Positions 3,726 through 53,642 of a DNA stretch of 64,000 nt are shown piece after piece (position 1 is the stretch's first letter; each line of letters starts with the position of its first letter). Below the pieces are notes generated by a model. That model was not told the origin of the DNA. It saw nothing but the letters and a program-made list of their open reading frames with translations, and did no database searches. Made by a program: the position numbers and the translations under genes. Source of the stretch: Bispira polyomma (Eukaryota). The stretch covers positions 2,976,001 through 3,040,000 of the forward strand of contig OZ287760.1 in the NCBI GenBank assembly GCA_965649765.1. Reading direction: 5' to 3'.

Positions 3726-5515
3726 ATAAATATGTAAGGGGTATTAGGGGTATCAACTAATACAGTAGAGGGCTGTAATCTAAACATGTAGGTTAATGCC
3801 TGTTGGTGCAATAGTAGGGAAGGCCCAAATATAGTACATTTCCTGTCGTTTGCGTTTCTGTGTACTATTTGGGTCTTCTGTGTGGCCTAGCCATTGCAGT
3901 ACACCAAACTCCATGTCTCTAACAGTATGTTGGTTAGTACTGTAATGTCTGGACACAGGGGTCAGTTTATTCTGACCAGGTTTAGTGACACTTGCTCCAT
4001 GTTCATACATTCTGTTTCTGAGGGGTCTTTTAGTCTCCCCTATGTACTGTAATCCACATTTTTTGCATGTGATTACATAAATGACATTCTTGAGTTCACA
4101 AGTAAGTCTGGGATTAGGTGGAATAGATATGCATTTGAACTGCTTATTGGTGTGGTGGCTGATGATATGATCCACTTTTTTTATGAGTGGACAATAAGTA
4201 CATTTTCCAAGTCTTGTACAAACTGTGGGTATAGTTTTAATAGTTGTACTGTTTACTGGAGGGTAGCAAATCTTAGAACTTGATAATTGGTCCCTAGGGT
4301 TGGTAATCTCCTGTAACCTATTATGGGAGGTTCAGTGAAGATATTGGCAAGGCCATCAGTATTCTGGATGATGTTCCAGTTTTTGTTGATTATTTCCCTG
4401 ATGTTGGGGTTATTTGGGTTATACTGAGTTACCATGACAGGGTTGTCCGTCACTGGTTTGGTGGTTTTTTGTAGGAGTTCATCTTGGGTGAATTGAGATG
4501 CCCTTTTATAATGTTTGGTGAGGTTCTGTTTGGAGTAGCCTCTAGCCAAATAGAACTTAGTGAGATTTTGGGCATTTTGCTCAAAGTCAACGTCTAGGGT
4601 ACAGACCCTTCTGAGACAAAGATATTGTCCATAAGGTCCTTTTGATAGGGTGACCCTTGGGTGGGCTGAGGTGTGATGGAGGTACAGGTGGGTATCTGTA
4701 GGTTTGGTGAATAGTGTTGTGATTAGGTCCCTGTTTGGGCCTAATTTAACAGTTGTGTCTAAGAAATTAATGGTGTGGTGATTGTATTCATGAGTGAATT
4801 TGATGGTTGGGTGGATGGAGTTTAGATACTCAAAAAATTGTATGAGCGAATTTTCTCCATGTGTCCAGATCATGAATATGTCATCAATAAATCTCTTATA
4901 CACAAATGGTTTAAGGGGGTAATTTTTATGGCTTTGGTTTCGAACCTGTCCATAAAAATATTGGCATAATTTGGGGCCAAGGCAGTACCCATTGCTGTGC
5001 CTCCTATTTGGAGGAAGTGGTCTCCATTAAACTCAAAGTTCATACTATGGAGTACTAATTTCAAGAGATCCAAGATGTATTTGGCTATTGGGGACTTGGT
5101 GGGGTCCTTCCTTAATTGGTCTGCTACAGCATTAATACCTTCATTATTTGGTATGTTGGTGTAGAGAGAGGACACATCAAGTGTGACTAGAAGTGATCCT
5201 TCAGGAATTGGGCCTAAGTCCTTTATTTTGTGAATGAAATCTTGGGTGTCTCTGATGTAAGACTTGGTAAGGGGGACATATTTCTTAATATGCTCATCCA
5301 CAAATTTGCTGATTCTGCAAGTAGGGTGGTTTACAGAACTACAAATAAGTCTGCCAGGTGCATTCTTCTTATGAATTTTTGGCAAGAGGTAGAATCTACC
5401 TTCAGTACAGTTTTTTGGTGTCAAGTATTCGAAGTTGTCCTCTGTGATCAACTTTGAGTTCCTTAGCTTGGTCAAGGTTTCAGTAACTTGATCAGAGATT
5501 TTATCTGTTATGTCA
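3726..5515 (-). mobile_element. Penelope-like element (Neptune-type), 5'-truncated RT + GIY-YIG endonuclease, frameshifted
   Basis: RT motifs LDVSSLYTNIP, GTAMGTALAPNYANIFM and RFIDDIF; linker CTRLGKCTYCP; C-terminal GIY-YIG NVIYVITCKKCGLQYIGET..LRNRMYEH (3780-4175). Flanked by GTAGCAAGACTTG at 3713-3725 and 5516-5528. Confidence 0.92.
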
Positions 5516-5869
5516 GTAGCAAGACTTGGCTTACCCAAGTGTTTTAGTTGAAACTACAAAAGTATTTAAAGTTACCTTGAGTATGTAGCTACTGTACTGT
5601 AGCTAAATAATGGGATCATAGCCATTATTTACAGTATAATAAGTTAGACTTCACATAGACTTAATAGAAGAGAAGACAGAAGTCAGTTTAACAAAGTATA
5701 ATTACATAATACTGTTAAGCTTACGCAATAACTTACGTTTTTGCGACAAAGGTAATATGTGAAAGGAGTGATAACTAAAATTACGTAATTGTTTTACATA
5801 ACCATTAATTATTACATAAGAGAGGAGTAGATTTAAAGTACAACCAGCCAAACCCCAATGAAGTAGGAG

Positions 5870-6873
5870 CTAGGAGGTGGAAGGCAACAAGTGATGTCTA
5901 AAGGAATCAGCTACCTGATTACCAGCGTCCACAGTATCAGTAACATATCTCCAAACGCAGTCCGACGTCCAGGTGCCATGTTTTTGAATATTTTGAATGC
6001 TTACATTATGGTTGAAGGCAAAGGTGGCACCTGAACGACGGAAAGCGTGGAAGGTGAGGCCAGAATCTTGCAGTTTAAGTTTTAGCAATATGTCTTTAAA
6101 ATGACGACGCACTCTGGTAGACACCAGAATGGCAGAATGGCGGAATCCAAACATTGTTAACCTTAATTAGGAACAATGGAGAGTTAGGTCCCGAAGGGGT
6201 GAGCCTCATTAAAGCCTTCAGTGAATCCACACGGCACAACAGTGAGCCAGGTAACCGGGGAACAGTGAGTAATTTAATTTGGTTATTACTTTGCATGGTT
6301 TTTGACCACTTGATAAGGATAACAGCCTTATCAGGGTGCAAAAGGACATCAGCTCTGGCTAGATGCCTAAGAGGAGAAAAGTGTGAGACTGAATGGGGAA
6401 CCAGGTTTGAGAGTCTAAGAAATGAGAAAAAGCTAAGCAAGTATAATGCTTTAAATACTAAACCCATGTACGTTGAGTGTGACAAAGACACGATATTTTG
6501 CAAAGTTGAAATATCTATGATATTCTTGAGTTTGACTTGAAGGGGGATGGATAGTTGTACAGCCTTCTGGTAATAGGCTATGTGCGGATCACTGAAGGCC
6601 TGAATGGGAACATTATATACTATTAATTTGGCCTTGATGGCAGACAAATAGTTTGCCATATGAGCAGGTTTGACTACATTAAAGTGTGAAACTTCTAAAA
6701 AAACCATAATATATGAAACGCAGTCACCTGATGTATAGGCCAATCCATAAAGACCATGAAGGCCAAGTACACTCTAAACATGGCTCTGTAAGACCTGGCA
6801 GTGGACCTGCAGAAGGCCAGGTGGAGCTTTTTAGTAGCATTGTGATACAGTTGTTTTTGCAAAGGAGTCTTAT
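5870..6873 (-). pseudogene. YR-A tyrosine recombinase (frameshifted)
   Basis: Catalytic motifs FLRLSNL, HAFRR, HGTW and VWRY. The frame begins right after the acceptor-like TATTTCAG with no ATG at the homologous start. Confidence 0.92.
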
Positions 6874-6919
6874 CTGAAATACAGGTTGGTACAAGGAAGA
6901 CGAGCTTAACAATTTAACA

Positions 6920-8819
6920 TTATATTGTGTTATCTAGTAGTAAATGTTGGTCAGTCACAGGGCACCACTGCACTGGACCTACAAGTGTATGTAATTTAGC
7001 ATGGTTTTGTGTAGAATTCTCCCATCTGGACAGCAGATCTGCAGTTGTGTTATGGTCACCTAATATATGTATAACTTGTAACTCAATGTCATGATGGCTA
7101 ACCAGCATAAAGATGTTACGTGAGTACAAAGCCAGGATACTATCTTTAGTACGACCATTTGCAAGTACACTAACCACAGCCTGGTTATCACATTTTATGA
7201 GCACTTTTTGGCCTTGCCAAAGGGGCCCCCACAGTTTTAAGGCAACAAAGATGTTTAGCATCTCTAGGGAGCCAATATTAAGGTTTTGTAATTCATGGGG
7301 TACTGTCAAGGCGTAGACTTTATTACCAAAGAACCCCCCATGCCTGTAAAACAGGCATCCAATTCTACAGTGGCTGTAATGGGGTTATGGTGGAAAAAAG
7401 AAACACCATTGAATTTTTTCAGAAAGGTACGAAACCAACTCAAATCTTTCATGAATTCAGTAGAGACTTTGAAAGTTTTTGCCTTGTAGTTACTCCTAAG
7501 GAGATGCAACATACGGTTCAAGAAAATTTTTGAATATTTAACACATTTTGACACGTAGAGAAGGGACCCCAATAGACATTGGAGTTCCCTTTTCGTACAA
7601 TGTTTCTTTCCAGCCCACTTGTCACACAAGGCTTGGATAGTAATTAATTTTTCCTCAGGAATAGAAGTAGTGAATTCGACCGTATCTATGACTATACCAA
7701 GACAAGTAACGCGCATGGCAGGAGGGACTAACTTTTTGTCACTCAAGGTGAGACCCAATTCTGTCAGTGGGCTTTGCAATCACTGGTATGTGGTATATAT
7801 TTTAGATGGAACTGAGCTTAAGTCAATTATAACATGACGGTTGGAAGAGCTGGACTTGTCGCGAGTCATGAAAGGGGAAGTGTATAAATTTAAAATTGGT
7901 GGCACATCAAAGGGACCATACATGGCCCCTAATTTACATTCTTCCTTCAAGTAATGCCTGACATGGTTGGGGTACTGATTAGCAGAGGAATGGTTTTTAA
8001 GATCAGACTCAAAGTCGCCCTTGTCACTACAGTCGAGAGGAAAACCGAATTTTATAAGCAAGGGGAGCTCCCAATCCCAGTAGTCCCTCAAATAGGCAGC
8101 CCACACTGGAGCATTTAATTGAGAAGCGACAGGGATCTGCAGCCCCCGGTAGTTAGGGCGGCCGTCCTCCTGCAAACACTTGTGAAGTGCAAAGACATTA
8201 GTAAAACTTCGTTTCTGAGCATTATCTGAAAGTTTTTCACCCCAGGACGACAGGGCAATGAAACCAAATTTTCCACTGTTTTGCACGTCCCATATTTTAA
8301 AAGTATCACACTCTTTAGCATCATTAAGTGTTTTGCGCTTATCAAGTGAGCGACACATGTCCAGAACATATTGATCGTCAGTTAAATCATTGTTTTCATT
8401 GGGTTTTTCCTGGGGGCTGACACCTTTGTATTTCTATTAATTGTTGTCTTTGTTGGCATCCCCAGTTCAGAAAAGGGGGCCTCTAGACAATCAACCAATT
8501 TAGTGTCACTTCCCCCCTCCCCACAAGGGGTGTCTAGCATTTCATACCGATTGGAAAGTGGTAATTGAAAACCCGTGTCAACACTTGTAGGTTTACCCCC
8601 TCCCTTACCCACGGCAGAAATTCATTTTGGGGTCTTGCCAATCACTTCATTTTTTAACAGTACATCTCTATATGATTTGTGCACAACCTGATTAAAACAA
8701 GCATACTGCTTGGAACACACATTAGTTAACAATTTAAAATCCTTAAATTCTGAATTATATACAACCTTACTAAAGACTGTCATACCCACTGCATCACTGC
8801 AGTGGGTCCTCAGTTTTTT
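6920..8819 (-). pseudogene. YR-A pol (RT/RNase H), RT catalytic core deleted
   Basis: SPFMTRDK..RHVIIDLS jumps directly to the post-YxDD region LGLTLSDKK. RNase H motifs LDAC, LEMLNI, CDNQAVV and N..ADLLSR are present. Confidence 0.9.
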
Positions 8820-9823
8820 TACCCCTTTTTTGAACATAATTTTGTTTGGTGAGGACCATCACAAGTCTAACAACAGTGTTTGAAAAGCTGGCCCGAAGTT
8901 CGGTGAGTGGCGTTAAACTTACAGGTACCCTCCTGGAAAAATCTACAGTGCACACCTTGTGTTTTAACCTGAGCTGTCTGCTTGTTACTAGTACTAGACT
9001 TTGACCCAGAACCAGCACTACTCGAGATATGACGTTGGGCATGTGCCTGGCGAAAGCGATCAACTTTATCTACATCCGTCCATTTAAGTCGGTCTAGTTC
9101 CATATTTGTCAGTAATATAGCATGAGAGGGTTTGGCGGCTTCCCATGAAAAGTCGTGGGCGTCGTCCATAAGATTTGCTAAATACTCAAGCATAGCTTCC
9201 TTAATCTCAGGGGACTTTTGTTCCTGCACACATTTCACAAATCCAGAAATAAATTGAACCAATGTTAAATCGTCGTAAGTAGGTCGAACCTTCTTAGCTC
9301 CAGAAAGAACAAAATTCTGGGGCCAATCTACCGCCTTCTTTATAGGGGCATCAGAACCACCTCGTTGGGATTTTAATTTACCTGCTCCCATTAACTGATT
9401 AAGCTGTTGGAGCTGCAGTAACCGTTGATCCACTTGTGTTTGTAAATTTTCATTAGAACGCAAATAATCTAATGAAGGGACTATAGCCTCGGCTACTGGC
9501 TCTACCACGCTAGGAACGACTACACTAGGAACAACATTAACACTGTTTGTAGGTAAAGTACTACATGCCTGATTGGCGCTGGGTGGGCACAGCGCCGCCT
9601 CCGTTACCTTCAGGCGTTGGTCCATGCTGTCCATTTTGCTATTCAATGATTGAAGCTGTTGCAGAATTAAGTCAGAAACTGAATCAGAAATCTCACCAGC
9701 TATGGAACCAACCGTGGGCACATCATCAGCGACGCTGGCATCCACAAACCGATACTTTTTGCCAACAGGCCGTTCATGTTTTCTCATACACGTATTACAC
9801 TGATATTCCCTTTTAGGAGGCAT
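8810..9823 (-). pseudogene. YR-A gag-like ORF
   Basis: N-terminal CNTC-x3-H-x2-P knuckle, coiled-coil segment, KSQRGG..W.PQ and MDDAHDFSWE.AK motifs, C-terminal CRFFQEGTC..HCC Zn finger. Homologous to the YR-B and YR-C gags; premature stops near the end. Confidence 0.85.
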
Positions 9824-14451: not shown

Positions 14452-17400
14452 TATTTCCAGATTTAAGCCTGAACCTCGTGGCACCCAGTGGTACCACTCT
14501 CACACAGCACTGCAAAGAGGCAATGGACTCTTTGGAGCTTTTATAGTTATACCTGTGAATGAAGCACCTGGATGTAAGTGAAAAATGTGAAATTTTGTTA
14601 GTAACACACTTCCATGGCAACAATGCACCTACGGTCGATCTAAGCCAGTTGTGACTAGGTACAGGAAAATACACAGACAACCTTAAGTGACCGTTGTCTG
14701 TAGTTAGTTCGAGTCGCTAATGGCAGGCTAAATCACTTTGGATGCATTGATACATTAGATCAGTCATCAGCCTGTTCCTTTAGTTAGATGTCATGTTAAC
14801 AAACATGTGCATATATTCCGGACAAACATAACCGATACAACTGTGACATGCATAATGAATTGTGTGTCTGTGCCATCAGCTCCACACATCAAAGTAGGCC
14901 TGTGGTACAGTTAATGGCTAGTATACATCAAAACAAATACTCATCAAAATACACATCAGAAATAAATGTGATACCTTCTGTCATAATAGAAACATTTGAA
15001 TTAGTTTGATGTCGCTTTCACGATGGTCAAATTTCGTATTTTATTTCAACAAGTGAATCGATCCCAAACTTTCTGTCTATTGTTAGACAGTTATTGACAA
15101 TGTGTCTGCATGACTAGAAAGGGAAACTGTGTTGTCAATTGGTATGATTTAATGCTTTCTAATGTTTGTGAGATCAATAGAAATATATGGAAATATATAG
15201 AGTTCACCTGTATAAGACATCAATTCTAGTCATTCTGAAGCAGGCACTTCTGAGCAGTAGACTTCAGCAACCACCTACTGTTACCCTAACTACTAGTCCG
15301 CACCAACCTCCTACTCTTACCACTAGTCCACACCAACCACCTACTCTTACCCTAACCACTAGTCCACACCAACCACCTACTCTTATCCTAACCACTAGTC
15401 CACACCAACCACCTACTCTTACCCTAACTACTAGTCCACACCATCGTCCTACTCTTACCCTAAGCAGTAGTCCACACCAACCTCCTACTCTTACCCTAAG
15501 CAGTAGTCCACACCAACCTACTCTTATCCTAAGCAGTAGGACTCGGCAATCCCTTACTCTTACCAGTAATGATAGCTGTAGTTGAGTTGAGTTTGAGTTT
15601 AACTGCTCTTTTTACAAATATTGTCATATCATGGCGAGCCGGTTTTCAGCGGTGGAGTAAATCAGAGCGTAGTAGTTGGTCAATGTTTTCTGCTCTGCAA
15701 ACTGTTGTTGGAATGCTAGGAATATGATTTGTTTGTGATTTTTAAAGTACCAGTATTCGACAAGGACTTTGTTGCGGTGGTCCATGACTGGCACCATCTG
15801 AGGTGTGATCTAGATTATCACTCAAATTCATACGGATTCAAGACGTACATCAAAGACAACTATAACTCTTCCTGCAGCGATTACCCAGTGGCCACAATCA
15901 TCAATGGAAAAGGTATATGAATACATTTCAGATGTGCAGATCAACTACTGCATGAAGTTCAAAACAGCAAACACAAAAATTAATAAATTCATTATATTTA
16001 ATAGGTTGATGTATATGCAGTATTACTGCGCCTCAAATATAATTGCTCGATCACTGATTAGTGAGAATGCAATTACTATTTGCAAAAGTGAAGACAAGTT
16101 TGACACAGTCTTAGCACATTCTATACACATTCCAATAAATGTAAAAATGTTCCATGCTACTTATTAACTGTTCACCATTGTTACTTACAACATAAACCAT
16201 AACAAACTACAGACAGTTTTAGGTTTTGTTTTTGTATTTTGTCTAGTATTTTAGGTTTTTGTAGGTCATCATCTGGTATTCTTTATTTCTGTATAGTGCA
16301 TTGTTTAGATTTTGTATTGAATCACAATTGTCTCATTGAAAATTATTTCTTTCGGAAAATCTGCACGAATTCCAGTACAAGAGATGTGTGTGCATATGCC
16401 AGCAAGTGTTCCCAAACAAATTTGAAGGGTAAAAATAACAATAATGAAACATTAAAACGGTTGTTACATAAAAAAGCCATTTGTTGTTGATTTTTTTATA
16501 GTTTCTACAAGTGTCCCGTGCTTACCAGTTACCATCCATATCCTAATCTTAGTTTCTACAAGTGTTCCATGCTTGCAAGTTAACATCTATATCATAATCT
16601 TAGTTTCTACAAGTATTCCATGCTTACAAGTTAACATCTATATCATAATCTTAGTTTCTACAAGTATTCCATGCTTACAAGCTAACATCTATATCCTAAT
16701 CTAATCTTAGTTTCTAGAAGTGTTCCGTGCTTACAAGTTAACATCTATACCCTAATCTAAATAATGGCTTTTTAACACACTAACTGTTTTCTCCAGAACT
16801 CAAAGTGACATGACATCCTAATCATTGGCAAAATTGGTAATATGAGAGCATAATCAATGGTGTCCACAAAATAATTAGCCCTGTTAGAAAGACTTAATAG
16901 GTAAAATTAAGGAAATGCTATTAGCTGTCCTGACTAGAAGTCACAGAATATTCCAGGGAGAAGGAACCCTTATAATATACTGAATGTCGAAATGGTTGTT
17001 GTATGGATAGCAGGAATTTGCATATTGCCAACATCTGTCGCTCCTGCTATTACCATATACGCGACATCAAAAGAATCAGAAACCACTTATCCATGGACAC
17101 AGTGATAACTGTGGCAAATGCCCTTGTGAGTAGCCGCCTCGACTACTGCAATTCTCTCTTGTACAGAGCAAACAAGTCACACATTAAAAAGCTTCAGTCC
17201 ATCCAAAACTACCTATGTAGGGTCATTTTTCGCCTGGGTTGTCACACAGACGTCACTCCTTACCTCAAAAAATTACACTGGCTGCCCATTAAATCTCGAA
17301 TTTTGTTTAAAATTCACGTTACCACTTTTAAGGCTGTAGTCACTCAACAGCCACCCTACCTTACCTCGCTTCTTTCTTTCAGTAACCGCAAGAGAGCCAA

Positions 17401-20400
17401 CAGACTCTCCGTCACTTCGGTCAGACCAATCAGAAAGGCGGGTTTCAGAGCATTCTCCACTGCAGCTCCACGGTTATGGAACAGTCTCCCAGTCGACCTC
17501 AGATCAGTTGACACACTTATCGGTTTCAGGAAAAAGCGGAAGACCTATCTTTTTAACCTTGCCTACCCACCTTAGCTTTCCTCGTGCACGCTCCCACTTC
17601 CCTCCTTACGACTTTGCAATTTCCATGCACTTAATGATTATACTAATGATGCTGCTGTTGCGCTTTAGAAGATGCCTAGCATCAATAAAGCGCGTTAAAA
17701 ATCTATAATAATAATAATAATAATATTTTGGAACCTGGAAACAATTGTTATCAAGGTTACTTTTACAAATCACTAAGGATAAACTTTATCAATGTACAGT
17801 TTCTTTGAGATAAACTGGTTGGCCAAAGTGGGTTTTTTTTTTTGTAGTTTGGGGGATGCAGTTTAAAAATAATTTCCGTCATCAATGTAACAGTAATGGA
17901 TCTCACTAAAAGGGCACAGATTATTTATTCCATTTACTGGTTGAAGAAATTGGAAAGAAATCGAGGTTAATGGTTTTCTATTCTGCAAACTACCAACCCT
18001 AGGCAAGCCAATATTTTAACAAATAATAGCTGTGATGGAAGGCAATTCTGTTCCTACTACATCACGCCCTCCACCCATGATTGTACCTTTTAAAATTTTC
18101 TTTTAATATGTCTCTAGTTTTTATTTGGAATCAAAGTTGTATTGTTGTGTTTTTCTAGGTATATTTGGAAGTGAAGACATCAATCCATGCTGGAACATCA
18201 TTACCACCTACAAGGTGAAACGGGGTCTATTCTACAGGTTTCGGTTTCTCAATACAGGAGTCAGATCACCATACGCAATGGAGATAGAAGGGGTAGGAGT
18301 TTCACTTTTTTTTTACCCATAGTCAATAGATTCATTGATTTGTTGGGTGATTTCTAAGTTCAGTTAAATCAAACAATCCCTCACGAAGGAATCAGTAGTG
18401 GGACTGGACTAGATCATCATTGCCCAATATAAACATACCTTTCATATTGACTGTTCAATGGAAGAAAGAATATTCTAGCCTTTTCCTAAAAACATATTAC
18501 AAAACGATTGTATTACTTTAGATTTGTTTTTAACGCGCTTTATTGATGCCAGGCATCTTCTAAAGCGCAACAGCAGAATCAGTGATTCAATCGTAAAGTC
18601 CATGGGCACAGCAAGGTTGTAAGGGTAGGGGGGTTAACAGCTGGTTAATCAGCAAGCAACCAGACTCTGTATTAACCCACCCCGTAGCATCCGGCGGCAA
18701 GGGGCGCAACTCCCTTTCACCCTTCATATGGTGAAGGGTGAAAGGGAGTTTCACAGTCTTTTAGTAAGAAAGTTTGGTTTGGGTCCAGTTCCCACTGTTT
18801 AGATGGGGATGACATTATGATTTTGGGGATGTTATATCTGCTGAGTATCCTAAACATAGTCAAGGTAAATGGTCTGTGTGGTGAAGTAAAGATGGCAAAA
18901 GAGGTGGATGGTTTAAAAACAATACCAATTTTTTTTTTATACCAAATTTTTTCGAACCCGATTAGCTGCTTCAATATGGATGCTACAGTCCAATTGGAGA
19001 GGATCTGTCACTTTATTGAGGATTTTGTTTACAGACTGCCATAGTTTCCTTGAATCTGTGCTGTTTTTTGGAAATGACAAAATCCTGACATTCTCTTCTA
19101 ACCATTTGAAAGGAAACTATTGCGATGGTGACAGCAGCTCTGTAATACAATCCCAACTGGTATAATTTTGTCATTTGCAGCACGACATGCTGGTGATAGA
19201 CTCTGATGGCAGCCCTCTGCGACCTTTTCGTGCAGATTATGTGGTAGCTCACATTGGTGAAAGGTACGACGTCATGATCAGATCCATCGCACCAGTAAAC
19301 AATTACTGGATCACATTCCGAGGGTTGTCATCTAGAGGTTTTGTAAGTAAAAATACAAAATACAATAGTAAAACTACCTGACTGGTATATATATCAAAAA
19401 TAAATGGGACGAAAGAGGATCATCAATACAAGAATAACACAACACAGTCTGAAAAGGCCCCAAAATATTGAAAATTCACGGCAAATTACACGATACAAGC
19501 GAAAGCTAAGTTAGGAGTTGTGAGCTTGAAGAATTAGCTTCAAATACAAACTTCTTCCACTCTAATAATCTGGGTTTGTACACAATAACATTGCATAAAG
19601 CTTGTATTTTTTTTATATATAGAACGTTTTCAACAATTGATGGATTAATTTATTTACTATGACAACACTAAAACAATCAAAAACTCAAAACAGTGTATTG
19701 TGACGTTTCGAAACCTTCCACTATCACGTCATAATGTAAATCTAAAAGTATAGAGTTTGTACCTTATATAATTAACTTCAAATTTGTATGTATAAACCAC
19801 TAAAAATCGAGTGTAATATCCTATTATGTAGTTTACGGTTTATATTTTATGTTGACCACAATATTTTATCACTTTACTATCCGAAATATAGTGCTAAAGT
19901 TTTTATATGCACATTTACGGGCGCCGGGTGATACGGTTTAATGTATCACCCAGCTTGTATCAAGCACGAAAACGTCATACTGACGTCACAGTAGATAATA
20001 AAATACAATCCAATGTAAGTATCTCTGTCCGGTTCAGCTGTATTTGCAACAGCATATCACTATTGTTTTTCCTAAATGTTTTATTTGCGGAAGCGATTCA
20101 AGAGGCTATGCACATAACCACATATAATGAAATACATGTTTGTATTATATGATATGATATAGCAGCCAGCCAGTAATACAATCAAAGAATGAAGTCCTAC
20201 AAACAGTAGTGTAGCAATAGTATTGTACACAGATATAGCATTTTGAAAGTTTTCAGTGTACCACAGATTTTAAATTTTAAATACACAACTAGTATTAACA
20301 CAGTATGTGTTATTATAAGCACGTTTGATTGGTATCAAAATAAGTCCATGTGGAAAAAGGTCAGTTTTTTGATAATTTGCTTAACTCTTGTATTGAACTG

Positions 20401-30046: not shown

Positions 30047-30434
30047 GTCTTAATTTCTAAGCCACTATACTATTACTGCATAATACCACGAATGGACTCT
30101 GGAAAAGACCGTTGGGGAGAATTTTTAAATTTTACAGTGTTAATCAGAGGCTTGTATTTAGTACATGTATTGGGAAAGTGAACTGGATATGGAAAGGTTA
30201 ATTATTTTTATATTCAGGACGTCACTGTACCATAATTTCATATTAATTTTTTCAAGATCAGCTACATTTCTTATAAAATCCCCATATTTGAACCAATTAT
30301 AGTCTTTATAAACGCAAAATTTATGTAGGCAATGTTTTCATGTATTGAAAAAAATGGAAATTCATAACCACTGGCCTCTTACTTCAGGTGGGAAAGTTTG
30401 TCAGTTACTTGCCATTGGGAAGTGGTTTACACTA

Positions 30435-32110
30435 AAATGGCGCACTAAATCATCACTTGACAGGAAGCACTACAGAACCCCCACAAACCACTTCAATGCA
30501 CTAAGGACCAGAGCCCAAAAAGAGCACTATGATTCGATCATCAGTGAAAATTCAAACTCACCAAAAAGGTTATGGAGCTCCATAAATAAAATACTCTACC
30601 ACACAGCTGAAAAAGTTTTGCCTAAAAATCATTGCCTCACATTTCTTGCAGAAAAGTTTTCATTAAAAAAAATAACTAGAACTCGAGAAGGTTTTTCAAC
30701 AGTGCTACATTTCTCTCCACCATCCCTTGGCTGTAAAGTATTAAATCTGCAACATTTTAATCCACTTTCCGAGAACGATGTTCTCAAACTCATAAAATTC
30801 AACTCCATCAAATCCTGTGAACTAGATTCTATGCCTGCCGCTGTTCTCACAGAATGTCTAGACATTTTATTAACTCCTATCACCATCATCATAAATTTTT
30901 CGCTTAGAGATGGTATATTTCTCTCTTCTTTCAAAACTGCATATGTCGCCCCCTTGCTTAAAAAACCAGGTCTTGACAAAAAAGGGCTAATAAACTATAG
31001 ACTAGTCTCTAACCTCAGCTTTGTATCTAAACTTATTGAGAAAGCTGTTGCTGAAGAAATTCATAACCACCTTAATAAACAAAATCTAGCTAACTGTTAC
31101 CAATCTGCCTACAGAAAATTTCACTCCACGGATCATGATGAAACTGTAGCCCTCACCCTTCTCGATCTCTCTGCAGCTTTTGATACCATCGACCATGCCT
31201 TACTCTTTGACACCCTAAAATAGTAGTTTGGTCTTAATGGTACTGTCCTTGATTGGATCAAATCGTACCTTGCTCTTAGAACCCAATAAATCAATTTGGG
31301 CGACCACTTTTCATCCTCTTTTAACCTACCATTTGGAGTTCCCCAGGTGTCGGTTCTTGGCCCTTTACTGTTTACCCTCTACACCCATCCTCTCAGTGCA
31401 GTCATCAATAATCATAATGGTAAACATCACATGTATGCTGATGAAACTCAAATCTATCTCTCCCTTATCACTCAGAATGCCGGATACAACCTGGATTTAC
31501 TTGCCAACTGTCTCTCTTCAGTTCAGGCGTGGATGAACTACGCCAAACTGAAACTAAACCCTGCAAAAACTGAATTCATCCTGATTGGAAATAAGAAACA
31601 CAGTGAATACTTAAAATCACTTTTCCCAATTACACTGTTGGGCAATGAGATTTAACCTTCAGATCAGGTCAAAAACCTAGGTGTCACTATCGACCCTGCT
31701 TTTTCATTTCTTCCTCACATTAACAGCATCCGCCGCTCCTGTTAGTATCACATTCGGGACCTCAAAAGAATCAGAAATTATCTGTCACTAGATACTGCTA
31801 TCACTGTGGCCAATGCCTTATGGATCTAGAGCCTTATCGGTCGCCACTCCTATGTTATGGAACATTCTTCCAGTTGAACTTAGATTGCTCGATACACTTT
31901 CTGGTTTTAGGAAAAGGCTTAAAACCTATCTCTTCAGGCTTGCCTATGCACCATGGTCCTCTTCCTGGGTGTTGACATATCCATCCTTACGACCTGGCTA
32001 TGTTTTTTTATTTTTCTATTGGCTGATTGATTCTGATGTTGCACCTTAGAAGATGTCTAGCATCAATAAGGCGCGTTAAAAATGTATAATACAATATAAT
32101 ACAATAATAA
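30435..32110 (+). mobile_element. L2-clade LINE fragment (RT), internally deleted
   Basis: [51 protein letters not shown] and KTYLF; same 3' tail as the 17.7-kb copy. Confidence 0.92.
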
Positions 32111-40285: not shown

Positions 40286-41120
40286 AGCCCGTGCATTCGC
40301 AAAATAAATCCAGCTCTTTATCAGTCTTAACTGTGTCTTATGCCGTGGTCATATATCTTTATTGATACTTTTAGTAGATTACAAAAATACAAACTTATGT
40401 TTACATGAAGTTAACAGTTTCCACTAATCAACACATCTACAGTTGAAGGAGAAAAAAAGAAGAAAACCAATTAATTGATAAAAAAAAATTATATATGCCT
40501 TTTTAGTTCATTAAATTTTCGGGGGCAGTGTTAAGGCATTGCCCTTGTCAGTCCTCCACGACCTTAAATCTATGGGGGTACCAGTCTGTTGGTAAGACAG
40601 GTAAAAATTTAAGTCAATAAATTAACAAACCCCATGTTGTTAAGAGAGAATTTAGGCTGTGTAATCTGATTGGTCGAAACATAAGGGACAGTTACTTACT
40701 AGTAAATAAGTTCAATTTGAATTTAGCCACAGACAAGAGTGGCAGGAATTTTCTAATTTTTACTTCTGTGATTTTGTTACTGTTTAATTTTACATCATTT
40801 TACAAAAAGTCATTTATGTTTTATATGAAGGATCTACGAGGACTATTTTAGTTTTTTAGTGTTTTATGAAACGTTCTGGAAGTGATTCTTCAGTGGCTGT
40901 GTCCTGACAGTTTTCTCCTCTCTGACAACTTCAGGCTTGATTAGCCCTCGGCCTGGGTATTAAGGGACGAAAATTATTTCTAACCTTGTCATTCATAGTA
41001 TTTAAAGCCGAGAAATAATCAAGTTGTGGAGTGGTCAGACGGGAGTGCTGTGGGCTGTTCGATTCTCGTTTCAGTGACACTTATGCAAACTGTAATTTAA
41101 AAACTTTAATAGACTTAAAA

Positions 41121-42238
41121 ATGCCACAATCGAAGGCACTGTGTAAAAAGTGTGGCAACAGACATACACCCCCAACAGTAAAAAAGTGTATTCGTGAAAA
41201 ACATATAGATACGGATATAGAACTTGAATCAGAAGGAGCTCGTGTAGTGTAGGACACTGTTGCTAAAAAACACGGGCGGAACACGCAAGATGGGAGGCAG
41301 TCGGCAGTGGAAACGGGCAAAGACCAGAACATCCAAAAGCTGATTCTACAACAACTCCAGAAGGTGACCTCACGTCTTGACGCTGTAGAAGATCAAGTGG
41401 CTGGATCTAGGACCAGACGCACGAAGGACAGTAGGAGTGGAAAGTTAAGTACAACTGTGTTAAGTCAAAAATATAAAAACAGTACTAGTGAAAATACTTC
41501 AGAGTCAGATTCCTCGGATGAGGAGCAAGTTTTGCCAAATTTATCCACTTTGAGAAGTTCTGCTTCATTTCAGCGTGGGGTCGATAATAGGCTAAGAGAA
41601 TTGGAAAAAGAAAGTCAAAATGCAGGTACTGATTCGTCAAGTAAAATAAAATCCAAAAGGGGGGCAGTTAATGTAATTGTAAAAAATAAAGTAGCTTGGC
41701 CCCAAGAGGCAATTTTAGGGGGGTTACAAGAAACAGGTTATCTTACGACCAGCTGTCCTTAACTCAATGGGTTCAGGGGTTTTGTAGAAATGTGTTAGAA
41801 GAGTCAGACAGTGAAAAAAAAGACAAAATGATAATGTACATATCGGATGTCATGGAGGACGCTACCGATTTTACATGGCAGGGCGCGAAACCAGCTCATG
41901 CTGTCCTGCTATGTGAAATGGAGCGAGGCACCCTCACATGGGATGACAGTACACGGATCGACAGGATCCGCAGGGCGCATGCCCAAAAGCATACAAACAA
42001 TAGCTTTGGCAGTGGGAAAAATTGGGAGAAAAAAACAAGATAACAACAACAAAAAGCATTGGTTTTGAAAATTCTTTCAAACGGGTACATGTCAGCATGT
42101 AAAAGACCACGAAATTGGTGGGAAGTTGCATAGACATATTTGCGCTCACTGTCTGGCCACAGGTAGGGTGTTGTCTCATCCAGAGAACGATTGTCTCTTT
42201 GCTAAGAAGTTGGGGCTCAACAGACCAAAAACGAGTGA
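41121..42238 (+). pseudogene. YR-B gag-like ORF (stops and frameshifts)
   Basis: CKKCGNRHTPPTVKKC, LILQQLQKV, KSKRG..VAWPQ, MEDATDFTWQGAK, RIRRAHAQK and a C-terminal Cys/His finger. Confidence 0.85.
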
Positions 42239-44633
42239 GGGACTGTCCTCAAGGTCTTAAACCAGAGGGCAGCTGGGGCGATAGTAGTCGGTTAGGAGTC
42301 AGCTACAGTAAAGACATAGTCAATGATTTTAGTGTACATAAAAAGCCAGCAAATGTTGATGTGAGACAGATGGTCTCAAAATTGAATAGTGATAGTATAC
42401 ACACAGTGGCAGATAGTTCTGTCAGTTTTACACAAGCTAAGGAGTTGACTAGTCTGGAAGGTTTTAATGTAAATGTACTAGAAGGTGTAAAGTATCAGAG
42501 TAAAACAAAGTATAATGACAAATACTTTTATAGTAGCAAAGTAAAACCAAAAGTGGTGGACAGTTTGTTGATTCGTTCACTAAAAGATGTAATGTGCACA
42601 TTTAGGGCAGTAACTTGTGACGTCAAGGCTAGGTCATATGCAAGCATAGTTAAAACTAAACCTAGGCTAGACAGGGCACGACAAAAGACTGGGACTCAAA
42701 TGATAGCACAAAAGGTCAGACATGGAAAAGTAAACACATGTGGTGACAATGACAGAAATGATAAGTACAAGGACAAAGTACAAAAACAAAACATGGTAAA
42801 AAGGGTGGAAAGGGAAATCCCTTCCCCAAAGCCAATAAAAGAAGTAGAGAATAATGTTGGTGATGAAACCAAGTTGGTGTTTGACATAAGTGGGTTGGAG
42901 GATAAATTCATCAATTCCATTATATTTAACAACAAAACGAAATCCAAACAAGTAGAAGCAGATTGTGACACTTTTAATCAATTCAAAAAACAGACTGAAT
43001 TCCAATTTGGTTTTATTCCACTGAGTGACCCCACCCTTCCTGACAACACGGACAGTGACAATAGAAGTATTGAATGTCCAATTAAGTGACACAATGAAGT
43101 GAAAAAAGGGGGGTGTGCTAACTTTATAGGAACTCGAATACCTGTCAACTCCCAACTCAACATAGAACAATGGAAGCTAATGTTAGAGAGTTATTGGGAA
43201 AAACAACTTCTTCAATTTTTGGAATTCGGCTTCCCTTTGGGCTTCAATAGGCAGTGTAAACTTAGTAATGACGTGGACAATCACAAGTCAGCTAAGGAAT
43301 ATGCAAAAGACATTAGTGTGTACATTAATGAAGAAAAAAAGTCATGGAGCCTTAATAGGTCCATTCATTAAAAATCCAATCAAGAATGGTCACCATTCCC
43401 CATTCATGACACGGGGAATAGGCGTGTAATTATCGACCTGAGTTGGCCAAAAGGGTGTTCAGTCAACGAGGGTGTTGACAAAGATAGTTATCTGGGGGCT
43501 GATTACAAATTGAATTTTCCCACTATTGATGACTTGGCTAGGGAACTTACCAAGTTGGGTAGGGGCGCCCATATTTACAAGCTTGACGTCAGTCACGCCT
43601 TTCGACATTTAAAGATAGATCCAATGGACTACGATTTGCTCGGGTTAAACTGGCAAGGTACCTACATTGACACTTGTCTCCCCTTAAGGAGTCGTCATGG
43701 TAGTCATAAATTATATAGACGATTTTTTGAGGTACGGAACACCCACAGTAGCAAAACGTTCATTTGAGTGCTTGTATGAAATCATGGAGAAATTAGGTCT
43801 GACAATCAGTCAAAAGAAATTGGTAGCTTCAAGTACACAAGCAGTGTGCCTTGGAATACTAGTGGACACGGTGAAAGGAACTGTATCCATACCAGAAGAA
43901 AAATTTGCAGAATTTAAATCCACAGTTGTACAATGGCAAACAAAAAATGTCTGCACAAAACAACAACTCCAGTCTCTATTAGGGCAATTACTGTATATTC
44001 ACAAATGTGTGAAACCTGCAAGGTACTTCTTGAATCGCATGTTAGAATTACTCAGAAGTATTGCAAATCCCAATAGGGTTGAGTTGAGTGAAGATTTCAA
44101 ACGTGACTTAAGATGGTTTCATAAGTTTTTACCAGATTATAATGGTATATCAATATATGGTCACAAGAGGACGGAACATACACTTGAATTAGATGCTTGC
44201 TTGCATGGGTTAGGGGGGTTGCTGGAAAAACTTGGTTTATCACCTCACAATCCCGCGTAACTTCCAAAACCTAGAAATAGTCCATCTTGAAATGATAAAC
44301 ATTCTGGTGGCTTTGAGATTATTCAGAAATTACTGGCAAGGAACAAAAGTATTGATAAAATGCGATAACCGAGCAGTAGTTCATGTCCTAAACTCGGGTA
44401 AGGCCAGAGATCCGTGCTTGTCTGCCTGCGTCAGAAATGTTTGGTATTTAGCAGCCAAGGCTGACATTGACCTGCAATATGTACATGTGTTAGACAAAAA
44501 CAACAGGACTGCTGACTTACTTTCAAGATGGACAAATTCAGTGAGTAATATAACAGAATTAAAAACACTGGTGTACAATCCAATATGGTTAGAAACATCA
44601 AGAGAGTTGACACAAATAGACAACACGTTGTAA
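42227..44633 (+). pseudogene. YR-B pol (RT/RNase H)
   Basis: RRVIIDLSWP..SVN, KLDVSHAFRHL, NYIDDF, LDAC, HLEMINI, CDNRAVV and ADLLSRW. Confidence 0.92.
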
Positions 44634-44703
44634 ATATATACCATAAGGTGTAACAATTGTAATAGGAGTTAAGTAAAAATAGATACTATACTTTGTTTTG
44701 CAG

Positions 44704-45680
44704 AATCTGGAGCATTGAAAGCTTTACAAGTAGGAGCCAACAGCAGGCTGCACACAGCTTTCAGGCCCAAGACCAGGAAATGCTACCAGAGTCTGTTTAG
44801 AACATTCATTGCTTTTTGCTTGTTTGCAGGGCTAGTATTAGAAGCTCTGGAAGTAAGAAACGTCATGTCTTTTCTAAAATACTTAGTGGTAAATAAAGTT
44901 TCTGTGCATATGATTGCTAATTATGTGTCAGCATTGAAGGCCATGAGTATAGTATATGGTCTTCCTTTTCAAATGTATGATCATCCAAAAATCAAGTATT
45001 TTCTAAAATCTATAAAAATCAACAGAACACATGTAATAGTGAAAAGAAATGTGTTGGACTTTAACACGTTGGAGCAATTAATAAAGCACTGCGTTCATAT
45101 AAGTAATTCACAAATATTCAAGGCTATATTCCTTACAGGGTTCTTTGGTTTTTTCAGACTCTCGAATTTGGCTCCACATTCAGTGAAGGAGTTTGATCCT
45201 TCACGCAATTTCACGGGTGGGGATGTGTTCTTTGAGCAAGATACTGTCAAATTGTTGCTTAAGTGGTCTAAAACCCTTCAAAATAGAGACAAAGTGCAAA
45301 TAGTAACTTTGCCCAAGTTAAAATCTTCTGTGCTCTGCCCATACGTGGCCTTGAGAAATCTCTTTAAGCTATATAGCCCAGGCAAAGATGAGCCATTGTT
45401 TCAGCTTTGCACAGCTTCTGGCAGGCAGGTGGTAACGAATTCAAGGGTAAGAAAGATGTTAGTGAGATTAAATGAAAAATTGGGATGCCCTTCAAATTTT
45501 TACACGTTTCACACGTTCCGAAGTTCAGGTGCCACTCTGGCCTAACAGGCGCAGGTTCCTATACAACAAATTAAAGAGCATGGCACCTGGACGTTGGATT
45601 GCATCTGGACATATATTCAATCTAACTCAAATAGTACACAGGTAGCCACCACCTTCCAGAGACTGCTGAATGCCAGGTAA
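44704..45680 (+). pseudogene. YR-B tyrosine recombinase (one in-frame stop at 45543)
   Basis: FFRLSNL, HTFR, HGTW and IWTY. The frame opens immediately after CTTTGTTTTGCAG. Confidence 0.92.
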
Positions 45681-46129
45681 ATGCTTCTACCCCTACCAGT
45701 TAGGTTTGAGGCTTCTGTATGTATCATATTTTACTAAAATTACAAAACTTGTAAAAGTTGAGGTCAACTGAATATAGAAACATTCACATAATAAATTCAC
45801 AAGCTACACTGGTGGGCTAGTTAACCTTAAACTGCGAGAGTTTAAGTCACATTTGGTGACCACTCAAATTAAGGTCACCTTAAATTTTTCCCTAAATTGA
45901 AACTTAAAAGTTGCCTTTAAGATAAAACCTTAACTCAAATTAAGTCTGGACTTAAATTCAAAACATTGCCTTTAAGATAAAACTTAAAGTCAAACTAAGT
46001 TCAATCTTAAACTTAAATATATTATTGACCTCAGCTTAATTCTGAATGTATATACTTAGTAGTATAGAAATTTATATTCTACACTATTTTACATATATAT
46101 TTTATAAAAATAAAATTATATATACCCTC

Positions 46130-46620
46130 ATAGATGAGTTATTTCTGACTTGGGAGTGGTAGGGACTGGTAATGATTATTGGCTGAATTGTCTCCCAGGG
46201 GTAATAAGTCGCTGATATTACCCAGATTGATTTTATCATTAAAATCTAATAAATTACAGTTATCTACATTTGACATAAATATTTTAGTTATACTGTAATT
46301 GTAGTAACCTTTCTGGTTTAAAATATCTTTGTTCAACTGATATTTTTCACGTATAACATTCATACTATTACTTAGGCATGAACCACTACCCTCCATTGTC
46401 AAGTTACCACACAGCTTCTAAATGAAATTGCTGCTATTTAATATACCATTAACAAATTTAATAACCCTTTTATGCAGATACAAATCAGCAGGCAAGTCTT
46501 CAACAGTTACCAGAATATATTTACAATGTGTTTTATTTGATAGATTCAACAATGTTCTGACACAATTTCTCCATGTTGTAAATAACAATTCCCACAATTC
46601 ACAGCCATTGATAGACTCCT
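46130..46620 (-). mobile_element. Non-LTR retrotransposon 3' fragment (same type as the 25.7-kb fragment)
   Basis: GCELW..WRNCVRTLLNLSNKTHC..LPADLYLHKRVIKF on the minus strand. Confidence 0.6.
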
Positions 46621-49440: not shown

Positions 49441-52400
49441 TAACTTACTTTTGTTTAGTTAATACTCTCGTAAAATCTACCTACTACAATTTATTTTTGT
49501 TGATTTTTTTAATGAAAACTATTATAAATCCACCTACCTAAGGTTATACTTAGAAGAAGAAGCATTTACAAGTGTGTGACAATTTAATCTAATCTAAATC
49601 AAACTTTTATTAGCGGCTCAAATCTCCATTAAAGGTTGGATTCTAAGGCGCACAATATCATGGATCATATTCAAGTCTCGTAATGGTCCTTTTTGGGGAA
49701 GGTTGTCATATATCCCAAGGAGAGACACCGGAATGAATATGAAACTATGGAGGGTAAAGGCTTCAGCCAAAAAGTAAGGTCTTAAGTTTGCTTCAAAAAG
49801 TTTGTGACACAACAAATTGTGGCGACGATAGTTACGGTGGCAACAACAAGCTGGTATTTATTTAATAAGAGGTATATCCTTGTCAGCTTTGAATAGGCAG
49901 AAATATATCTAATATTTATAGGAAAAAGAAGTGGCTATGACTTCATTATCAGGTAGAAGGACAAAACTGAAAGAGAGGCATATCGATCAAAATGTTGTCA
50001 CACAATTCAGGAAAATAAACGGGAGGTCATAAAAAGGCATTTGACAGTCACACTTTTTTGTGTAAAATCTCAAAGTGTTCTTTCTGCTTGCCTCAATGAT
50101 ATATGAGGTTTTAGATGGATAGACTTGCAATTCCGAGCCAACATACTTATCATAACATAACATAGATGATGGATGCTTCATAATTACCTACACACCATAT
50201 CTGTTCACCATCTAGAAAATATGGCCTGGAGGTGAATATGATGAAGTAAATAAATACATTTTTTTTTACATGCAAAAACAATAGCTTCGTGGTGTGCATA
50301 CCCTGAAATGAAAATGAAACAAAACTTATATTGAACAAGGTTGTCCATGAAATTGGAATGTTGTTGAGTTTCCAGGGTGGCCTTTCATCAGCTTAGAGTT
50401 ATATCGCGACGGCCAGGAATCACATCGACCCTACAGCAAGTATACCCAACATCAAGCTTTGACTCAAAGTACCGGCTTCTAGTTCTATTTTAGTGAGAAA
50501 CAACATTGTCGGGGCCATATGTGAACACGGGTGTTTTGCCTAGTGTGGCTCGGACGACACACCACTTAAAATGGTGATGATCATCTGACCCATTGAGTTG
50601 TATCTCTCCAGTGGATTTTTTGGGGGAACATTGATATAAGCCTTGGCAAACCCATAGTTGGCTGCGCCCATGAGGAAGAGCATTTTGAACCCCCCCCCCC
50701 CCTATATTATATGTATATATGTATTGTAAAAGTATGCTTTAAACAAGTATCCTATGTTCGTTATAGTATGTTTAAAATAAAAAAAACCGCCAACTTACCA
50801 TTGTACCAGTAGTAATAAGATCAAGTAAACAGCTCATGCCTAATTACATCCTAAGCTGCAACTCCGCTGTAAAAAATGGACTAAAATATGCTCATTATAT
50901 GTATATGTATGTACTGTTGGAATAAAAAAAATATATATTTTTCCAGAAAAAAAATTCTGAATCAAAATCAATCACACATATACACAAAGCATAACTATGT
51001 ATAATTATTATTATTATTATGCATTTTTAACACGCTTTATTTGATGCCAGGCATCTTCTAAAGTGCAACAGCAGAATCAGCGATCCAATCGTAAAGCCCA
51101 TGGGCATAGCAAGGTCGTAAGGGTAGGGGGGTTAACAGCTGGTTAATGAAAAAGCAACCCACCCTGTAGAATCCGACGGCAAGGGGCGCAACTCCTTTCA
51201 CCCTTCACATGGTGAAACGTGCCTTAGCCTAATGGTACTTAATATGATTGTTTGATGTGAAATCAAGTGAGGATCAATTCTCATTTATTCTTGGTCCTTA
51301 CTTGGTTGTAACTATATAAAGTAAAGTTTGTTTATGGTTAGCCTGGTCTGAAGGCTTACTTAGTTTTCTTTAATATCAGGTGCAGGCCTGTGATGTTGCT
51401 TTTTGGGCATTCTTTTAAAAAATGGGCGCTGCCATCATAAGAAAATCATATGAAAATGGCCTTCGTGGAATCGGTTAGGGAAGAAAACCCGTCCTTCACC
51501 ACTGAGGTGTGTGTGTGGGGGAAGGTATCAGATACGCCTGAGAGTATAGATAGTGGGCCATATGAACGTTAATCTATTAAACACACTGTGTGCGTGCCTG
51601 TGTGTCTTCTTTTAAACGTCAACTCTTGTTGGAGTTACACTGTGGGCCCTAGTGGTGGTTAGAAGCGCCCGGCTTTACACAATCACACTGGCCTCTTCTC
51701 ACCGAATGTGTGGGTTTGAATCCCGTCTGTTTCCTTCATATGTGGGCTAAAGTTTTAGGCTGTCGTGGTTTTACACAGTGTCTCTTCAGCACTGGTTTTC
51801 TTTTTCACCAATTGAAATCTGGCACTCATCATAATATATGACCTGATTATAATGCCGGTGGGCGAGTTGCAAAAACGATGCCGGTGCATTTGATTCAATA
51901 AGGCTGGTCGCATAACAAATGCCCCCTGGACCAGTAATAGATGCACAGCGATTTCTGTTTGAAAATCCCCAGCAAGTTGAAAGTGATGTAAAAACCCAAC
52001 CAGAAGTGGATACTGTGTCTTTTTAAGTTCACCATTACAAAAATACACGCAAAGCGGCCTCCCCCACCCACACACACGCAAACTAAATAGGCCTTTTTAT
52101 TTTCCACTTGGCCACGTATACAGAGCATACAGGAGAGTATGTGCGGGGTAGACCCGCAGGGGATAGCTAGTTCAGTGCTACCAGTATTTTCCTTAACTTA
52201 CCTCTCTGGGGTCATAACCTTTTAACGCCTCTTATAATTGCCCAGTTTGTACCTATTGACCCCAGCTTTCCCCCCTTTTCTGCAGATCTATCACTTTTTA
52301 CATTGAAGTCAAAGAGGCAACAACGCCATCTTAAATATTTTACTTTTTTAATTATATGCTGTGATATTTTTACATGATCTCTTTTATTTTGTTTGTGGTG

Positions 52401-52651
52401 CAATTGAAGGATATGTTGATTCACCTCACTGTTGTACACACTAACCAAGGATTCACGGACTGATTGTTGCTGTGTTCAAGTGTTAACTCACACTCTTGAG
52501 TCGTGCGAATATACTACTCGTGGAGCGCTGTTAAAGGAATGTATCAAATCAAATTCTAATCACAAGTTTTCACCATTTGAATAAGATTGCAATTGTTTCT
52601 AGTATATAGGCAGGTATCAAGACACCGAGTTATTATATTTGTTTAGAGGCT

Positions 52652-53642
52652 ATGGCCCAAAGGAAACTATATGAGTGCCAAAAATGTGGCACAAGTCACG
52701 TTAAACCAATAAACGAAAACTGTTCTGGCATTGCCGCGGAGGAGACTGAGGATGCTGAAACTGATACTGAAACGCAGAACTCTGTTCAGGCCAGTGACGG
52801 TGTGGCTTCGGTCAATATTAGTATGCAAATTCTCAAAGAACTGAGAGTTCTTAGTGGACGCATAATGCTAGTCGAGCAGAAAGTCGCTCACGGCGAACAT
52901 AGAGCCCAGTTCTCGAGGGCAACCTCGAGTCTGTAGGTCCCTGTCCAGACGCCCCAGACGCAGTTAGAAGAACTACTGGTACTTACACTCCAGACACTGA
53001 GAACTTCACATTCCCCCCCAGACAGCTGTTGACTCCAGACTGAAGGAACTCATCGCAATTAACGAGTCAGGTACATGCAAATCGCAGCGTGGGGGAACAG
53101 AAACTGTCAGGGTCAAAAATAAAATTTCTTGGCCACAAAGCTACATCCTTGGGCGGCAAAACAAATCCCGTGTTTCCTATGACTCTCTCTCAATGGCACA
53201 ATGGGTGGCTGGCTTTGCCAGCATAGCCAGGGAAGAAACTAACATTGATACTAAAAACCATATGCTTGAATACTTGGCAGATCTAATGGAAGACTCACAT
53301 GACTTTTCTTGGGCTGCTGCTAAGGGCAGCCATGCTGTATTGTTATGCAAAATGGAGGAGGGAAAAGTGTCTTGGGGGGACTCCCATAAATTAGATCGCA
53401 TTCGAAGGGCTCACGCCCAAAAAGTTATGACTCAAAATTACAATAGTAGTAGCAATCCCAAGAAAAGTCATGACAAAGCCATTCCATGCAGGTATTACCA
53501 GAAAGGAACTTGCCCCCAGAAAGGGGAACATGAAACTAGGGGGGTTACATATAGCCATGTATGCAGCGAATGTTTCAAGACGGGGCGCTCTTACCCCCAT
53601 CCCAGCAAGGACTGCCGAAAGAATCCCACAAAAAACGAGTAA
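52652..53642 (+). pseudogene. YR-C gag-like ORF
   Basis: CQKCGTSHVKPINENC, KSQRGG..WPQ, MEDSHDFSWAAAK and CRYYQKGTC..HVCSEC..HPSKDC. Confidence 0.87.

Follow-up and report, generated by a model that had tools for sequence, protein, structure and literature searches.

We analysed a 64,000-nt stretch of Bispira polyomma DNA (the window) from a genome of 1.04 Gb. The window contains three decayed Ngaro-type tyrosine-recombinase (YR) retrotransposons, designated A, B, and C. In these elements, a splice donor inside gag and a splice acceptor at the start of the YR frame are real and conserved, and both signals probably function; in other respects the family is an ordinary one of Ngaro type. It is very probable that YR is made from a spliced subgenomic RNA as a fusion with the N-terminal half of Gag (Gag-N::YR). 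We observed the signals, their conservation, their shared phase, the start of coding constraint at the acceptor, and one exact join in a distant relative. The copies and their parts are as follows, in window coordinates.

40515..46170, forward strand: copy B, a decayed YR retrotransposon of Ngaro type, 93-95% identical by blastn over its span to two genomic relatives (L001/L002), with reverse transcriptase (RT), RNase H, and YR domains
41121..41625, forward strand: gag N-half of B, predicted exon 1, with a CxxC-x3-H-x2-P-x4-C motif, a long helix, and a D.R..L helix; in-frame stop at 41250
41623..41631, forward strand: predicted splice donor of B, CAG|GTACTG, at a gag Gly codon; donor at 41626
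41626..44703, forward strand: predicted intron of B, 3078 nt, comprising the gag C-half and all of pol
44683..44703, forward strand: acceptor region of B, with a putative branch-site-like RTRYTATRCTTT motif, a T-rich tract, and GCAG
44704..45680, forward strand: YR of B, predicted exon 2; premature stop at 45543
about 10040-5520, with a further piece at 3380-3725, reverse strand: copy A, decayed
9382..9823, reverse strand: gag N-half of A, predicted exon 1; open frame
6874..9381, reverse strand: predicted intron of A, 2508 nt, CAG|GTAAAT ... TATTTCAG; pol internally deleted
5870..6873, reverse strand: YR of A, predicted exon 2; stop and frameshift near 6697
about 52140-56580, forward strand: copy C, decayed
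52652..53070, forward strand: gag N-half of C, predicted exon 1; stop and frameshift near 52935
53071..55781, forward strand: predicted intron of C, with an intact donor, CAG|GTACAT, and an acceptor that has decayed from the family site
55782..56100, forward strand: YR remnant of C; large internal deletion

The gag N-half of B has 505 nt, that is 168 codons plus one nucleotide, and its donor is therefore in phase 1. The B acceptor, TTTTGCAG|AA at 44703, is also in phase 1. The same phase was found for the A donor CAG|GTAAAT at 9381 on the reverse strand and the A acceptor TATTTCAG|AT at 6874, and for the C donor at 53071 and the C acceptor TTTACAAG|TA at 55781. The positions, letters, and phase given for these six sites in the initial annotation were all correct. 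Its placing of the donor just before KS[Q/K]RG was accurate for A and C, where the distance is 2-3 codons, but in B KSKRG follows the donor only after 8 codons. Measured from the upstream D.R..L helix, the three donors are at about the same place. Likewise, YR opens after an AG followed by two nucleotides in A and B as proposed, whereas the "acceptor" of C is one codon short of the family position. Since close relatives of C (L151, L154, and L160) read TTTACAG|AT at the family position, the C acceptor in the window is a decayed copy. Gag-N or YR is interrupted by stops or deletions in all three window copies, and none encodes a whole fusion. The case therefore rests on the family.

Searches of the genome with YR or Gag queries gave at least 139, 150, 150, and 150 matches. 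From these, 100 loci were fetched whole, chosen for open frames and for a spread of identity, and 60 short stretches were added later. The main locus set comprised the 100 relatives and the three window copies (103 loci). A YR frame of at least 300 residues was present in 82 of the 100 relatives, and these frames formed 29 clusters at 85% identity, with 26-83% identity between clusters. Family counts refer to these 29 YR clusters; the 33 lineage representatives of the donor analysis come from an ungapped comparison, which over-splits.

Open reading frame (ORF) maps of the 100 loci showed that intact copies carry gag, RT-RNase H, and YR in tandem on one strand. RVT_1 matched above the Pfam cut-off, while RNase H-like and Phage_integrase matches were mostly below it. 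In the YR alignment, the R of F[LF]R[ILAV]SN, HxxR, HGTW, and a Y near the C-terminus were found, and we take the R, HxxR, H/W, and Y to be catalytic. In most copies pol ends 40 residues past the ADxLSR motif, and no Dam methyltransferase match was found after RNase H in three intact pol frames. Ten of the 100 genomic relatives were compared with themselves. Split direct repeats in the order A1-ORFs-B1-A2-B2, 98-100% identical, lay downstream of YR in five of them (L047, L087, L091, L097, and L084) and were partial in L078; the other four had none within the fetched stretch. The elements are thus Ngaro-type by gene order, repeats, and missing methyltransferase, an assignment made by these marks. 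In the portions available of PMC4157794, PMC3783388, PMC8547959, PMC9210276, and PMC3266345, Ngaro elements have the same gene order, no methyltransferase, and the A1-ORFs-B1-A2-B2 arrangement; gag, RT-RNase H, and YR, split direct repeats, and lack of a methyltransferase appear as Ngaro marks in passages of the first, third, and fifth of these (PMC4157794, PMC8547959, and PMC3266345). A PAT-like identity was considered and rejected, as the split direct repeats fit but the methyltransferase is absent. A DIRS1-like identity was also rejected; self-comparison gave long direct repeats only and no inverted terminal repeats. Many young copies (L019, L029, L039, L040, L050, L052, L064, and L067) matched their siblings over only 5.5-5.7 kb (A1-ORFs-B1), with no A2-B2 in the fetched stretch, and full-length copies occurred alongside them.

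The gag donor was anchored between the D.R..L helix and a K[ST]xRG motif in 73 of the 103 loci. In 72 of these 73, one gag Gly codon reads in frame A|GGT|A. This was so in all 22 families with an anchored gag, the remaining 7 families having no anchor, and it agrees with the earlier expectation that the Gly codon would be held to GGT followed by A across families. Of the 286 other gag Gly codons, by comparison, 5 are set in A|GGT|A, and at each of six conserved gag Gly columns the same holds for 0-1 of 14-15 sequences. The surrounding residues vary among the 33 representatives while the nucleotides do not: the Gly is preceded by S, A, T, G, K, or Q, encoded in every case by a codon ending in A, and followed by K, T, N, I, or S, always with a codon that begins with A. 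On its intronic side the donor is weak, 5/33 representatives having G at +5, which would fit splicing of no more than a part of the RNA. In an AlphaFold model of Gag (mean predicted local distance difference test score, pLDDT, 63.6; predicted template modelling score, pTM, 0.34), the donor coincides with the beginning of a linker that is modelled with low confidence and separates two modules. The N-terminal module has short strands and helices at 47-78 and 108-134, and the C-terminal part is helical. A Foldseek search of this model against the PDB gave no match at E <= 0.001.

The acceptor was anchored in 87 of the 103 loci via an H.AF motif. In 84 of the 87, an AG lies exactly 15 (group B) or 16 (groups A and C) codons plus 2 nt before H.AF; in the other three the AG is shifted by indels. 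An acceptor profile was scored for 24 families, with 5 left out. AG was present in 24/24 families, T at -5 and at -6 in 24/24, and a pyrimidine at -3 in 23/24; the best of 75 other codon-spaced places had AG in 11/24 families. The codon before the acceptor encodes seven different residues, and the flanking amino acids vary. AG was also kept in 56 of the 60 YR loci added later. The predicted intron measures 2.9-3.2 kb in most relatives. Together, donor and acceptor fit a U2-type spliceosomal intron, with a GT donor, a pyrimidine tract, a YAG acceptor, and matched phase, and both sites were in phase 1 in every family scored. These splice signals are far beyond chance. Conserved letters of this kind could in principle belong to another DNA or RNA signal for replication, recombination, or structure, and other nucleotide-level signals do exist inside the coding sequence here, such as an 18-bp stem in YR. 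Both profiles, however, fit the 5' and 3' splice-site consensus position by position, and a contig of a distant relative, described below, joins exactly there; the probability of this alternative is practically negligible.

Coding constraint begins at the same point. The ratio of nonsynonymous to synonymous differences (pN/pS) over the 30 codons after the AG was 0.20 in group A, 0.30 in C, and 0.28 in B, against 0.80, 0.98, and 1.24, respectively, over the 10 codons upstream of it, in an ungapped and rough comparison. Purifying selection on YR thus starts at the acceptor AG. In groups A and C the first YR Met is usually at codon 30, so that selected YR sequence lies upstream of the frame's own start codon.

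This result bears on whether YR is translated alone, from a near-start ATG, by re-initiation after pol, by internal entry, or from an internal promoter, with the splice-like motifs being secondary. In group B, 13 of 17 family representatives have an in-frame ATG no more than 12 codons upstream of the acceptor AG. This speaks for such a start and in part against the fusion, an in-frame ATG in intact copies being one of the findings that the initial annotation had named as refuting it, and many database relatives of YR are called with a near-start ATG of this kind. The earlier statement that YR has no ATG at its start therefore held for the window copies and for groups A (0/7 representatives) and C (0/6), but not for most of group B. 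In A and C, moreover, the 30 codons before the first Met are themselves under purifying selection. The B-group ATG behaves like part of a nucleotide motif, not like a fixed start. A single motif, 19, 21, or 22 nt from the end of the AG, includes two ATR triplets, either of which can be the ATG; ATG alternates with ATA and GTG there, and the B codons upstream of the AG show no protein constraint by the rough ratio above. That motif, RTRYTATRCTTT, lies 19-22 nt from the AG end in 17/17 B-group representatives, and no motif of that form was found in A or C; it may be a branch site. Translation of YR from its own start would also leave the gag donor and the join in the distant relative unexplained, and we consider it unlikely.

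YR might instead be reached from pol by ribosomal frameshifting or stop read-through, giving a Pol-YR polyprotein. In group C, YR follows the pol stop by 6-9 nt, and gag and pol are apparently linked by a frameshift signal, both of which would suit such a mechanism. The offset from pol stop to YR, however, is 0, 1, or 2 among close relatives (L081/L085/L084 and L062/L064/L063), and all three frames occur in A and in C. This variable offset argues against a fixed frameshift. Between pol and YR the gap is 6 to about 80 nt long, and the YR frame often contains stops there. In the available part of PMC3783388, fungal Ngaro elements of all groups likewise include both in-frame and shifted YR. A Pol-YR polyprotein is highly improbable for these elements.

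A join of Gag-N to YR was seen outside this genome. A scan of public contigs yielded 20 relatives. One of them, L101, whose YR is 41% identical and whose Gag is of the same type, carries CAAG|GTAATT at the donor position and TTTTGTAG|GC at the acceptor position. Eight others (L102-L105, L111, and L115-L117) have a pyrimidine tract and a YAG in phase 1 at the YR start. Two contigs from two assemblies, L112 and L114, were compared with the unspliced L117. They were identical to L117 at 60 of 60 bases to the right of its TTTTGCAG and at 14 of 60 to the left. At their 5' end, L112 and L114 have an open frame that starts with a Met and shares 95% identity with the first 139 residues of P0123. This protein is Gag-like and has 7 further relatives, one of them named from a coral. 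The match to P0123 ends at the Gly of an L[TS]GE motif. L112 and L114 thus link the N-half of a Gag, in phase 1 and at a Gly, precisely to the homologous acceptor.

The pattern extends to database proteins. In 58 of 70 anchored linkers among the best 150 Gag matches, G is followed by K, N, T, M, or I (shuffles: mean 24.6, maximum 35). Among the best 120 YR matches, 50 of the 54 with a long enough start have the acceptor residue pair at offset 15 or 16. In L103, L104, and L105, we also observed a conserved AAAG|GTACG at the Gly of FSSKGT, deeper in Gag than the window donor, which is a candidate donor for this type of Gag. Upstream of the joined frame, L112 encodes a GDSL/SGNH hydrolase ORF (892-1533); ORFs for GDSL/SGNH-type hydrolases are reported in Xenopus Ngaro elements in a passage of PMC9210276.

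Several points weigh against the Gag-N::YR fusion. L112 and L114 represent one junction, with a YR that is distant (about 25-31% identical to the query) and itself broken. These contigs may derive from RNA or from DNA, and the join is known from its joined form. Their Gag type differs from the one in L105, the full element closest to that YR; the join may therefore be a cross-element one or reflect two nested elements. As for the donor, one YR Gly column is likewise mostly GGT (24/26), never followed by A, so that codon constraint alone is no proof of a donor; this column belongs to the conserved 18-bp stem, which accounts for its GGT. The fusion proposed in the initial annotation thus has the signals and the join at homologous sites in L112 and L114 behind it, while no gag-YR junction was seen in this organism. 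Five short junction patterns detected no intron-less genome copy, most families lying outside these patterns; as a control, 114 unspliced C-type donors were matched. No intron-less copy was present among the 60 extra YR loci (42 of C type whose gag partner was not listed, and 18 of B type), and RNase H lay upstream of YR in 60/60. A fusion-sized open frame was found in none of the 439 YR matches listed. A gag-YR joint was absent among the 15 of 224 and 15 of 22 joints listed, from three runs behaving like genomic DNA, and no RNA data set was listed as containing L087:1586-8658. Intron-less copies may be missing because spliced RNA is not returned to DNA, or because splicing seldom occurs. In the protein database, YR stood behind Gag-N in 0 of the best 150 of 660 Gag-N homologues, the best 120 of 711 YR matches were 289-375 residues long, and a search for longer Gag-N proteins returned two plain Gags. 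This is expected if the entries are plain ORF calls on DNA, as they appear to be.

The doubts about L112 also touch a further reading, in which the splice sites are used but with another partner or without a working fusion, YR receiving a different 5' exon or splicing serving to limit full-length RNA. The pairing of donor and acceptor within one element is predicted from phase, and the sole observed join may link two elements. However, both sites are in phase 1 in every scored family, the join is in frame, the YR frames of A and C have no other start, and the 5' exon observed in L112 is a Gag N-half cut at its Gly. We regard this reading as very unlikely. In L038 and L045, different YR families adjoin directly in the same orientation; this could give cross-element splices such as that suspected in L112.

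The fusion of Gag-N to YR would arise as follows. A single transcript from repeat A1 would either stay unspliced or be spliced. Left unspliced, it would be both the genome and the mRNA for Gag, and a predicted -1 frameshift at A AAA AAC would give Gag-Pol. This heptamer, a typical -1 frameshift signal, was found in frame at the gag end in 42 of 54 long gag ORFs, and in the window it lies in C.

53630..53642, forward strand: slippery heptamer A AAA AAC where gag ends in C; a -1 frameshift into pol is predicted here

In the distant relatives L101, L104, L105, and L107, pol follows in frame right after the gag stop, a read-through layout, in contrast to the -1 slippery site in the families of this genome. 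In the spliced RNA, the mid-gag donor would be joined to the acceptor at the YR start, linking Gag-N (130-190 residues) to YR (about 325) in a predicted fusion of about 460-520 residues. Gag-N, which has a zinc-binding motif and a long helix, would give the fusion its start codon, and it may also link YR to Gag particles. Splicing in this organism, the fusion protein, and the role of Gag-N are predictions from sequence. A wider proposal is that splicing of Gag-N onto YR is general in animal Ngaro elements, with phase 1 kept across unrelated Gag types, donors and acceptors interchangeable between families, and Gag-N loading the recombinase into the particle. Interchangeability is suggested by the L112 join, and we give the proposal as a whole an even chance.

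In retroviral env and in Ty1/Copia gag, one transcript is the genome and, when spliced, the message for one product. The spliced product there is Env or Gag, whereas these elements would obtain their integration enzyme in this way, fused to half of Gag, and the comparison with env splicing made in the initial annotation is a loose one. The SD' RNA of murine leukemia virus (MLV) appears to be the closest analogue. As described in passages of PMC10496198, this RNA, which encodes P50, also uses a donor inside gag and a downstream acceptor to place the N-terminal part of Gag in frame with integrase sequence. According to the same passages, P50 is an accessory protein with no more than the final 116 residues of integrase, the enzyme itself being supplied by Gag-Pol, and SD' RNA is retro-copied. 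By contrast, the whole recombinase would depend on the splice here, and no intron-less copy was found. DIRS1-like and PAT elements combine RT-RNase H with a tyrosine recombinase, as here, but have a methyltransferase domain that is absent here; DIRS1-like elements have inverted repeats, and their YR often overlaps pol. In the available portions of the Ngaro literature, translation of YR is not described and gag-YR splicing is not mentioned; the string "splic" is absent from those of PMC3783388, PMC8547959, PMC9210276, and PMC3266345. Our literature search found no report of a gag-YR splice in elements of the order DIRS, though reviews by Poulter and Goodwin or Repbase may mention one.

If Gag-N::YR is the true product, the N-terminal 130-190 residues of Ngaro "ORF3" proteins are missing from their annotation, which would matter for recombinase biochemistry and reporter work. 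These elements would then be retroelements whose whole integration enzyme depends on balanced splicing, the host spliceosome setting the ratio of genome RNA to recombinase. This would be a precise answer to how the third gene of YR retrotransposons is expressed.

Inside the catalytic region of YR, we observed a second conserved nucleotide feature.

45517..45598 (arms 45517-45534 and 45581-45598), forward strand: 18-bp inverted repeat with a 46-nt loop inside the B YR catalytic region; homologous in A, C, and relatives

The stem keeps 14-18 of its 18 pairs in 24/24 families scored (5 skipped), and the loop is 37 nt in one family. It overlaps the FRRSGA and HGTWTSD codons, and DNA contigs pile up over this block. 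The stem may be a replication or packaging signal.

Elsewhere in the window, an RT with a GIY-YIG-like C-terminal frame (3780-5553, reverse strand) lies between two pieces of the copy A tail; from its motifs we take it to be Penelope-like. On the forward strand, 16976-17575, 30312-31223, and 61876-62358 presumably represent LINE-like fragments and a short ORF with a VWA-like start, again judged by motif.

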